Positions 9,172 through 9,922 of a stretch of DNA of 25,919 bases are shown here, piece by piece. The translations under genes and the position numbers were made by a program. This DNA is from a virus: the UHGV virus genome UHGV-0239440; one strand, given 5' to 3'. How positions within the stretch are numbered: the stretch's first letter is position 1; the number at the start of each line of letters is the position of its first letter. The notes beneath the pieces were generated by a model. The model had not been told where the DNA came from. It searched no databases and worked only from the letters and a program-made list of their open reading frames with translations.

Positions 9172-9191
9172 CAGAAGACCAATTGCAGCAA
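9172..9191 (+). repeat. spacer motif CAGAAGACC-N5-CAGCAA, copy 1
   Basis: CAGAAGACC aattg CAGCAA; preceded by TTTTGA. Confidence 0.7.
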
Positions 9192-9255
9192 ACTTAATCT
9201 TATTCATCTGAAGGTAAATCGGACAAAGAAGAGTTTTGGTATGGTCATTAAGAAT

Positions 9256-9332
9256 TGCGGGTATAGAGAAAGGGCGTCTCACATGTCTCATTAGCATGGT
9301 ATCGGCAGGTTCGACTCCTGCACCCGCCTCCA
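9256..9332 (+). tRNA. tRNA with CAT anticodon (Met or Ile2)
   Basis: Anticodon stem CATGT/GCATG loop CTCATTA; T-arm GCAGG-TTCGACT-CCTGC; 3-prime ACCCGCC-T-CCA; 5-prime boundary uncertain by 1 nt (possible 1-72 mismatch). Confidence 0.6.
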
Positions 9333-9338
9333 ATTTTG

Positions 9339-9358
9339 CAGAAGACCGTATGCAGCAA
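9339..9358 (+). repeat. spacer motif CAGAAGACC-N5-CAGCAA, copy 2
   Basis: CAGAAGACC gtatg CAGCAA; preceded by ATTTTG. Confidence 0.7.
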
Positions 9359-9409
9359 TAAACTACTTTTTGCGGATAAAAGAAAAAACACGGTCTGGCA
9401 ATGTATTAA

Positions 9410-9486
9410 GGTTAGGAAGCACATAAGGTATGTGCGGTCGCCTGTTAAGCGAATGGCACAGGGTTCGAATCCCTGACTAACCGCCA
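9410..9486 (+). tRNA. tRNA-Asn (anticodon GTT)
   Basis: D-stem GCAC/GTGC, anticodon stem GTCGC/GCGAA loop CTGTTAA, T-arm CAGGG-TTCGAAT-CCCTG, CCA encoded. Confidence 0.8.
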
Positions 9487-9557
9487 AATTTAGGAGAGAA
9501 GCGATTGCTCACCGATTTGTAAGGTGCAAGTCCTTAGCCTGAATAGAATAATAAAAT

Positions 9558-9645
9558 GTGTCGTTATCCCGTAGATGGTAGCGGTGGGGACTGTAAATCC
9601 CTTGTCATTAAGACTCGGTAGGTTCGACTCCTACACGGCACACCA
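9558..9645 (+). tRNA. tRNA-Tyr (anticodon GTA), class II with long variable arm
   Basis: 88 nt; acceptor GTGTCGT/ACGGCAC; anticodon stem GGGGA/TCCCT loop CTGTAAA; T-arm GTAGG-TTCGACT-CCTAC. Confidence 0.75.
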
Positions 9646-9651
9646 AATAAA

Positions 9652-9729
9652 GGTTATGTAGTTTAATCTGGTTAAAATACTCCCCTGTCACGGGAGATGA
9701 TGAGTGTTCGAGTCACTTCATAACCGCCA
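9652..9729 (+). tRNA. tRNA-Asp (anticodon GTC)
   Basis: Acceptor GGTTATG/CATAACC, anticodon stem CTCCC/GGGAG loop CTGTCAC, discriminator G, CCA encoded. Confidence 0.8.
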
Positions 9730-9782
9730 AATTATAATAAGTATTTCAAAATGATGTTTGAGAGGGCTATTTAGCCCCTCCC

Positions 9783-9811
9783 TTAAAGAGTTCTTACGAG
9801 TATTCTTTAAA
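9783..9811 (+). repeat. AT-rich hairpin element with conserved GTTCTTACGAG loop, copy A
   Basis: TTAAAGA-GTTCTTACGAGTA-TTCTTTAA. Confidence 0.6.
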
Positions 9812-9815
9812 GGAG

Positions 9816-9835
9816 CAGAAGACCAAATACAGCAA
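9816..9835 (+). repeat. spacer motif CAGAAGACC-N5-CAGCAA, copy 3
   Basis: CAGAAGACC aaata CAGCAA. Confidence 0.7.
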
Positions 9836-9902
9836 GTTACTTAAAATTTCAAGCCAATTTAATTTTGAAAAATTTAAAACTTGGTCTGGCTCAACAAATT
9901 TA

Positions 9903-9922
9903 CAGAAGACCGTTTACAGCAA
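9903..9922 (+). repeat. spacer motif CAGAAGACC-N5-CAGCAA, copy 4
   Basis: CAGAAGACC gttta CAGCAA; preceded by AATTTA; lies 15 nt upstream of the permuted tRNA-like element. Confidence 0.7.

Follow-up and report, generated by a model that had tools for sequence, protein, structure and literature searches.

Why should four spacers of a phage tRNA array carry the same bipartite sequence motif? The DNA considered here, a stretch of 25,919 nucleotides (nt) from UHGV virus genome UHGV-0239440 (called the window below), belongs to a Felix O1-like phage (Felixounavirus; 91-96% identity to many records) and includes an array of 26 transfer RNA (tRNA) genes, all on the + strand (9003-14731). A first-pass annotation had described the motif, CAGAAGACC-N5-CAGCAA, and offered three readings of it: a phage-specific promoter, a protein-binding site, or an RNA processing signal. 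The four exact copies are indeed present (9172, 9339, 9816, and 9903), all on the + strand and all in spacers of the array. Their occurrence is not random: with up to three mismatches allowed there are five matches, versus a mean of 0.84 in 100 dinucleotide shuffles, none of which reached five.

The four copies mark four small structured non-coding RNA genes, three short and one long, whose products are probably Y-RNA-like partners of a divergent Ro60-like protein. They belong to a large and widespread family of phage and prophage RNAs, so far undescribed and absent from Rfam, which shares its strand with the Ro60-like gene and in most cases is no more than a few hundred bases away from it.

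Four stem-loop RNAs in the tRNA spacers

Each motif copy forms the 5' half of an RNA that closes into a stem-loop. The downstream partner, overlooked in the first-pass annotation, is present for every copy as GGTCTGG (GGTATGG in the first element of the window). From the outside in, the module consists of a 4-bp helix (H1); an AGAA/UG internal loop; a 6-7-bp helix (H2) starting with G-C; an unpaired (U)NN-CAGCAA; and a variable region followed by an A-rich stretch (AAAAC) and the return strands. The four elements are as follows, with scores from the covariance model R1 described below:

9169-9247, + strand: E1, short, 79 nt; H1 TGAC/GTCA, H2 GACCAA/TTGGTA; R1 22.2 bits, E 0.0022, not in the R1 seed
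9336-9401, + strand: E2, short, 66 nt; H1 TTGC/GCAA, H2 GACCGT/ACGGTC; R1 41.3 bits, seed member
9813-9892, + strand: E3, short, 80 nt; H1 GAGC/GCTC, H2 GACCAA/TTGGTC; R1 45.1 bits, seed member
9900-10037, + strand: E4, long, YrlA-like, 138 nt; H1 TTAC/GTAA, H2 GACCGTT/AACGGTC; R1 23.1 bits (5' module), not in the R1 seed

H1 is perfect in all four copies, with four different sequences, and an H2 partner is found in each; minimum free energy (MFE) folds of E2, E3, and E4 recover both helices. The elements fit closely between tRNA genes: E1 begins 4 nt past the CCA of tRNA-Glu and ends 8 nt ahead of tRNA-Met, and E2 begins 3 nt past the CCA of tRNA-Met and ends 8 nt ahead of tRNA-Asn. In other Felix O1-like genomes the H1 of E2 changes on both sides, from TTGC/GCAA to TTAC/GTAA, and that of E3 appears as GGGC/GCTC or GAGC/GTTC, with G-U pairing kept. 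The 3' strand of H2 in E1 reads TTGGTA in the window versus TTGGTC in all relatives examined, a single C-to-A change (within 9236-9247); since this breaks an otherwise invariant G-C closing pair, E1 of this phage may be impaired. A kink-turn and a loop E were considered for the AGAA/UG internal loop and dropped by eye, the required G-A pairs being absent.

This structure bears directly on the promoter reading. The "-35-like" hexamers remarked upon earlier (TTGACA, TTTGCA, TTTACA) are real as letters, but they are the 5' strand of the outer helix H1 and not promoter elements. The absence of a -10 box was correctly noted: there is none at any motif copy, nor any sigma70-type promoter (-35 and -10 hexamers 16-18 nt apart). 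With no -10, and with the motif pairing to a covarying downstream strand that a promoter does not need, a phage promoter is not supported. The degenerate copy reported at 12261 survives only in part: its 9-mer, CTGAAGACC, is present, but it is not considered a family member because it lacks both CAGCAA and the return strand and was not picked up by R1 in the window search. The spacer around it (12227-12321) has nested stems of its own, as judged by eye (AGAGGTC/GACCTCT and CTGAAG/CTTCAG). Of 145 matches to the exact motif in IMG/VR (120 loci), 110 are without a return strand and were rejected as chance, and the 35 with one are all Felix O1-like, the four of the window included.

The long element, E4, encloses a tRNA-like domain, all of it within H2:

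9938-9954, + strand: anticodon-arm-like (or V) hairpin TTTCT-CCGGTAA-AGAAA (MFE fold, Rfam tRNA alignment)
9959-9975, + strand: T arm GAAGG-TTCGATT-CCTTC (fold, Rfam tRNA alignment), conserved in the long forms of eight lineages
9976-9993, + strand: acceptor-like 7-bp stem ACTCGGC/GTCGAGT with a 4-nt closing loop (MFE fold)
9996-10010, + strand: D arm GTGT-AATGGTA-GCAC (MFE fold)

The Rfam tRNA model scores 24.7 bits on E4 (9919-9983). Because the acceptor-like stem is closed by a 4-nt loop, the tRNA is permuted. The same order of T arm, acceptor-like stem-loop, and D arm inside a closing helix is found in the long forms of at least eight lineages, with D-arm-like sequences at the matching place in other long forms, and RNAalifold run on the long forms recovers the closing helix and the T arm together with an acceptor-like stem that covaries across lineages. 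That E4 might be a decoding permuted tRNA was considered and is unlikely: at position 33 the anticodon-like loop has C in place of U, and a loop closes the acceptor. One family member in another phage locus (L167 7735-7834) encloses a tRNA-like domain in normal order (D, anticodon, and T arms); tRNA-like inserts have thus been taken up by the closing module on more than one occasion.

The RNA family and the Ro60-like gene

The proposed protein partner is encoded upstream of the elements, which start 332 nt beyond the end of the gene and on the same strand:

7422-8837, + strand: Ro60-like protein gene, 471 aa (Pfam DUF2828 and DUF7788, fold search)

Pfam assigns the protein DUF2828 (4.7e-29) and DUF7788 (8.4e-44); it combines DUF2828 with a vWA-like domain. 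Protein sequence and profile searches against PDB sequences gave no match, and only a fold search succeeded. For an AlphaFold2 model (34 homologues; predicted local distance difference test score, pLDDT, 86.8; predicted template modeling score, pTM, 0.88), the best 10 Foldseek matches in the PDB are all Ro60/Rsr/TROVE rings, matched over the full length (2i91_A, E 8.9e-8, TMq 0.67). The predicted structure has the features by which the Ro60 family is recognized, a HEAT-repeat ring and a vWA domain with a MIDAS (metal ion-dependent adhesion site), and the MIDAS-like D279-x-S281-x-S283 is invariant in the 34 homologues. As modeled, the product has a Ro60 fold and is a divergent, DUF2828-type member of that group.

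In records of related phages the product is named "RNA-binding protein" (Citrobacter phage Mordin among others), "vWFA protein", or, in mycobacteriophages, "Ro-like RNA binding protein". DUF2828-type Ro60-like proteins occur in 710 phage records, including Felix O1-like and KVP40-like phages, Listeria P100, Campylobacter, Staphylococcus, and Enterococcus phages, and cluster L mycobacteriophages, as well as in numerous contigs of prophage-like character. Pfam places the DUF2828 family in eukaryotes and viruses, and the Aeh1 homologue is annotated as similar to an Arabidopsis protein. One member, gp130 of Bas63 (Felixounavirus), is a Ro60-like protein encoded directly upstream of tRNAs that counters the ppl defence (PMC11482910).

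Does the RNA module follow this gene? Other phage loci were fetched by protein alone, and the module recurs in them with wholly different helix sequences, as in L155 9397-9469 (TATT-AGAA-GGAAGA-TTT-CAGCAA...AAAAC-G-TCTTCC-TG-AATA). In three loci (L162, L182, L188) elements begin 57 nt past the stop of the gene, and in mycobacteriophage Rumpelstiltskin the "Ro-like RNA binding protein" gene is directly followed by three copies in tandem, of which the outer two are short and the middle one is long and includes a tRNA-like domain. A loose descriptor (6-bp helix, 1-5 nt, C[AT]GCAA, A-rich stretch, return strand, then xG) gave 141 matches on the gene's strand, versus 33 on the opposite strand and 26 in shuffled sequence.

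The covariance model R1 was seeded with 26 short elements from many phages. Run on the window with filters off, it finds exactly the four sites, the next best scoring 12.5 bits (E 0.64). Run on 81 other phage loci (1.16 Mb), it yields 103 matches at E<=1, all but two of them (101/103) on the gene's strand. At E<0.01 there are 77, of which 55 are no more than 500 nt from the gene, in a zone amounting to 6.8% of the sequence; at least one such strong match is present in 53 of 78 gene-bearing loci. In the alignment of R1 hits, 98.2% of pair cells are paired, versus 62% in column shuffles and at most 58% with slid partners, and 227 cells are changed on both sides. The first helix pair is G-C in all 94 rows, H2 covaries across 96 distinct sequences, and G-U pairs are tolerated on the transcribed strand only. 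AGAA and H1 are absent from most family members.

The coupling holds in both directions. In an independent replicate with 80 bacterial assemblies picked by protein only (mostly prophage-like contigs, and including the isolates Dysosmobacter segnis and Hominicoprocola fusiformis), all 58 R1 matches at E<=0.1 are on the gene's strand, nearly all of them just upstream of the gene. In the reverse test, a scan of IMG/VR for the RNA pattern only, 14 loci were found, and for 11 of these the flank that was fetched includes the gene, on the strand of the RNA. Erwinia phage Roscha1, of the same subfamily (Ounavirinae) and with 27 tRNAs, has across its whole genome neither a homologue of the protein (best tblastn E 0.05) nor an R1 element, the best score being 17.4 bits on the opposite strand inside a structural gene.

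Such elements also occur, directly upstream of the gene, in annotated phages from other hosts:

three elements in Listeria LP-083-2 (43.6, 44.3, and 25.4 bits with R1)
two elements in Campylobacter F370
one element in Enterococcus phage 113
one element in Vibrio ValKK3

The Ro60-like gene tends to adjoin tRNA genes in these four. Two uncultured phage contigs with a Ro60-like gene and RNA elements also have transfer-messenger RNA calls by ARAGORN (L162 14119-14479, L182 13168-13521).

In Listeria phage CKA15, three very highly transcribed non-coding regions were reported within 2 kb upstream of an Rsr-like gene, with the comment that they "may be Y RNAs" (PMC12282133). R1 finds three elements upstream of this gene, in the interval 25,290-25,560 of OR088597.1 and behind a TTGACA-N17-TATCAT site.

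Proposed function, rival explanations, and other features of the array

Several features of Y RNAs are found in these elements: proximity to the gene and a shared strand, paired termini carrying conserved sequence, and, in E4, a tRNA-like domain. For expression, processing, binding, and role, the following scheme is proposed. Upstream of the array there are two candidate promoters:

8856-8884, + strand: sigma70-like match, 10 of 12 consensus positions
8947-8976, + strand: sigma70-like match, 10 of 12 consensus positions

Both are consensus matches only. They are the only such sites on the array strand within 8700-10400, and the match count for the region, three, is what shuffles lead one to expect (3.3). 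Transcription from promoters near 8856 and 8947 would yield the RNAs together with the tRNAs, and ordinary tRNA end-processing would release them, with RNase P cutting at the 5' end of the next tRNA and 3' trimming at the previous one; H1 would then seal their ends. They would bind the Ro60-like ring via the conserved module, as Y RNAs do. The short forms could be gate or tether RNAs, and the long form a tRNA mimic that ties the protein to enzymes of the host for RNA processing or repair, or else to defence factors directed at tRNA, perhaps with a role in RNA repair, quality control, or counter-defence. The earlier suggestion of a protein-binding site may thus hold in a different sense, that of an RNA platform for the adjoining Ro60-like protein, to which the genomic coupling points.

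A number of observations weigh against partnership with a Ro60-like protein. Pfam TROVE (PF05731) is not matched by the 7422-8837 protein, and because it has a Ro60 fold but falls outside TROVE in Pfam, its own binding of RNA is something we infer. The Ro60-binding motif GNCGAAN0-1G, with its CGAA, is not present as such in the window copies or the relatives examined, and the Rfam YrlA model does not match E4 even at E<=10. Nearly a third of the gene-bearing loci (25/78) are without a strong R1 match, although in some of these the descriptor scan finds only long forms or CTGCAA variants. Pair counts from the hit alignment are biased towards R1's own structure, so it is the strand and position statistics that serve as independent evidence. 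Finally, the most abundant non-coding RNA of CKA15 was considered as a family element and rejected, the region being a ROOL RNA: 26,236-26,727, left unexplained in the original report (PMC12282133), matches the Rfam ROOL RNA model RF03087 at 90.1 bits (E 2.4e-18; gathering score 99.1) over L211 1470-2021, or about 26,195-26,746 of OR088597.1. The R1 elements of CKA15 lie 700 nt further downstream, and theirs may be one of the other two abundant regions. Since the CGAA and Rfam tests for YrlA failed and the protein is not TROVE, the RNAs are classed as Y-RNA-like partners of DUF2828-type proteins.

Could the elements instead be only cis-acting hairpins that process or insulate the tRNA transcript (entry points for RNase III or RNase E, or blocks to exonucleases), with no function after cleavage? 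The regular offsets in the spacers, 3-4 nt past CCA and 8 nt before the next tRNA, would suit this, as would the joining of both tRNA-proximal ends by H1. The RNA processing signal proposed at the outset is to this extent upheld for the window, where the elements fill tRNA spacers and are probably freed by tRNA processing. It does not carry over to most other phages and prophages, in which the RNAs flank the Ro60-like gene and not tRNAs. Conservation also goes beyond a mere helix, to unpaired motifs (CAGCAA, the A-rich stretch, UG); the long forms bear a conserved tRNA-like domain; and Roscha1 manages an array of 27 tRNAs without any such elements. Processing hairpins alone are therefore an unlikely explanation.

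Trans-acting small RNAs or tRNA-mimic decoys working independently of the Ro60-like protein, for example by directly sequestering a host nuclease or RNA-binding protein, would leave the linkage to the gene as co-regulation only. Host factors could be bound by the unpaired conserved motifs and the tRNA-like module, and Dictyostelium RNAs of similar architecture bind an RNA recognition motif (RRM) protein directly (PMC7919456). Against this stands the tight and reciprocal co-occurrence and co-absence of RNA and gene in phages with hosts from Actinobacteria to Firmicutes to Proteobacteria, a pattern that usually marks physical partners, Ro60 and Y RNA being an example, and independence from the protein is judged quite improbable.

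Self-cleavage of the tRNA precursor by ribozymes of the hairpin type has been considered for the order H1-AGAA-H2 / H2'-UG-H1', which recalls loop A of the hairpin ribozyme, AGAA facing a G-containing strand. Here, however, the opposite strand is UG and not AGUC, AGAA and H1 are missing in most members, and a second conserved catalytic domain is absent. Rfam searches at E<=10 over 8500-15000 and with each element returned nothing beyond tRNA, weak YrlA, and weak Dicty Class I matches, and thus no ribozyme family; such an activity is very doubtful indeed. Signals at the DNA level (phage promoters, homing-endonuclease or recombination sites, REP-like repeats) would account for an intergenic repeat with -35-like hexamers in an array that HNH endonuclease genes interrupt in relatives, but are highly improbable given the one-strand bias (101/103 and 58/58), the G-U pairs tolerated on one strand only, the covariation of the "-35" letters with a partner 50-130 nt downstream and no -10, and the position of the Listeria phage elements downstream of a separate promoter-like site.

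The array has some further features outside the RNA family. Two long tRNA spacers (10043-10185 and 11024-11160) share a second repeat, GCAGTAGCTTnnTnGGCTAA, with copies at 10047 and 11028. The first of these has a 10-bp long-range closing stem, CTTTGCAGTA...TTACTGCAAAG, with the hairpin CAGACC-CTTTAGCAA-GGTCTG inside; both spacers may be further structured RNAs or decayed tRNAs. Between tRNA-Ser and tRNA-Leu (11725-11824) there is a long hairpin with a spurious match to the MIR473 plant microRNA model (30 bits, E 0.0024), the strength of which indicates a stable stem-loop. A tRNA-like stretch missed by ARAGORN (11382-11456) has a weak match to the tRNA-Sec model (21.3 bits) and, by eye, what may be an anticodon loop with CCA (Trp); an unusual tRNA or the remnant of one would fit. 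The open reading frame at 10359-10844, between tRNA-Met and tRNA-Ile, occupies a place given to HNH endonucleases in related records. By eye it shows pairs of Cys and an HH...N...H pattern, it has no Pfam match at E<=0.01, and its presence varies among relatives, as seen in coverage gaps.

Comparison with known Ro60 and small RNA systems

So far, Ro60-Y RNA particles have been described in animals, in some bacteria, and in a few phages. The DUF2828-type branch is much larger and was previously without a known RNA partner; a full-text literature search for DUF2828 brought up, by title and abstract, no paper on one. Y RNAs near the gene had only been guessed at, for CKA15 (PMC12282133) as for gp130, near which "some tRNA genes ... 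are possibly Y RNAs" (PMC11482910). With the family come precise coordinates, a covariance model, and a proposed binding module that can be tested. It allows a direct test of what is bound by gp130, the anti-defence protein of Felixounaviruses, and it accounts for "empty" spacers and "tRNA-OTHER" calls in phage tRNA arrays.

The closest bacterial parallel is YrlA/YrlB with Rsr/Ro60 (RF02553). Shared with it are a position near a Ro60-fold gene and on its strand; several paralogues per locus, short and long; paired 5' and 3' ends; and, in the window copies, a purine-rich xGAAG on the 5' side of the stem. In bacterial YrlA the order is V, T arm, acceptor stem-loop, D arm (PMC4201824), and the tRNA-like domain of E4 (9959-10010) is likewise permuted. 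In Listeria phage LP-083-2 a gene for an RtcB-like RNA ligase (L207 6815-8026) follows the Ro60-like gene at a distance of 1.3 kb, which recalls the rsr-yrlBA-rtcBA operon for RNA repair in Salmonella, RtcB being close by in Listeria phages. YrlA RNAs were found only in genomes with an annotated TROVE protein and carry the motif GNCGAAN0-1G (Chen et al. 2014, PMC4201824), whereas the protein here is DUF2828/DUF7788, the signature consists of CAGCAA and an A-rich stretch about a helix closed by G-C, and the RNAs of the window are inside a tRNA array. At the corresponding 5' position the window has xCAGAAG (E2 GCAGAAG, one base off), most relatives AAAG, and mycobacteriophage copies GUG. No copy reaches the RF02553 gathering score of 69 bits; the long form of Rumpelstiltskin scores 21.4 bits (E 0.026), at model positions 30-81 only.

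Among phages, the Ro60 of Thermus phage phiLo binds two adjacent stem-bulge-stem RNAs with CGAA, Yrl1 and Yrl2, and its complex with polynucleotide phosphorylase is experimental (PMC12135203). The arrangement of a phage Ro60-fold protein with adjacent small RNAs is the same, and 9kop and 9l5y are among the fold matches of the window protein. The phiLo RNAs were chosen by CGAA and their binding is experimental, unlike the present family, which is known from sequence and a predicted fold.

In metazoan Y RNAs the binding helix is GGUCCGA/UUGACC with a bulged C. With these RNAs and Ro60 the family shares the general plan of a small RNA with paired termini bearing the protein site and a variable loop tethering other factors (partly PMC4201824). 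It differs in that metazoan Y RNAs have neither a tRNA-like domain nor CAGCAA. Phage T4 "species 1 and 2" (RNA C and D) are small stable non-tRNA RNAs co-transcribed and co-processed with the phage tRNAs; this is an analogy of context only, and we know of no associated Ro60-like gene.

The one Rfam family repeatedly aligned end to end with the short elements is RF01414 (Dicty_Class_I_RNA), which ranks first or second in Rfam for copies from three groups of phages. Scores are 18.0 and 14.7 bits for E2 and E4, 18.9 and 14.5 for Rumpelstiltskin, and 22.8 and 20.1 for a Listeria phage, all below the gathering score of 41.5. Dictyostelium Class I RNAs have a 6-bp terminal stem with an invariant 5' G, an adjoining 11-nt motif, CCUUACAGCAA, and a 3' CUGU (Kjellin et al. 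2021, PMC7919456). Like the phage RNAs they are about 60 nt long, with a 6-bp terminal helix and an invariant first G-C pair. An unpaired ACAGCAA comes directly 3' of the helix's 5' strand, the interior is variable and rich in A and U, a run rich in A comes ahead of the 3' strand, and UG follows the helix. Of the 11-nt motif, no more than the last 6-8 nt are held in common, as (U)ACAGCAA or CAGCAA with spacing one base shorter; CUG is present. Unlike the phage RNAs, Class I RNAs are eukaryotic, have their own Dictyostelium upstream sequence element (DUSE) promoter, start at the helix, and lack the outer helix and AGAA. Their sole proven direct binder is an RRM protein (PMC7919456), and a link to a Ro60-like protein is not known. 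One of four proteins pulled down with DdR-21, a Class I RNA, was DDB_G0281243, described as a protein of unknown function.

The likeness may be convergence or chance. That the two sets of RNAs are homologous, forming one class, or share a DUF2828-type Ro60-like protein as partner is a tentative idea and on present evidence a rather unlikely one, but it would offer a possible handle on the Class I RNAs. If they are one class, with the G-C-closed helix, ACAGCAA, and A-rich return recognised by such proteins, the long-unexplained Class I RNAs would be Y-RNA-like and have their partners in a second lineage of Ro60 that phages share; the same would perhaps go for RNAs yet to be discovered in plants and fungi, and DDB_G0281243 would be the first candidate partner.

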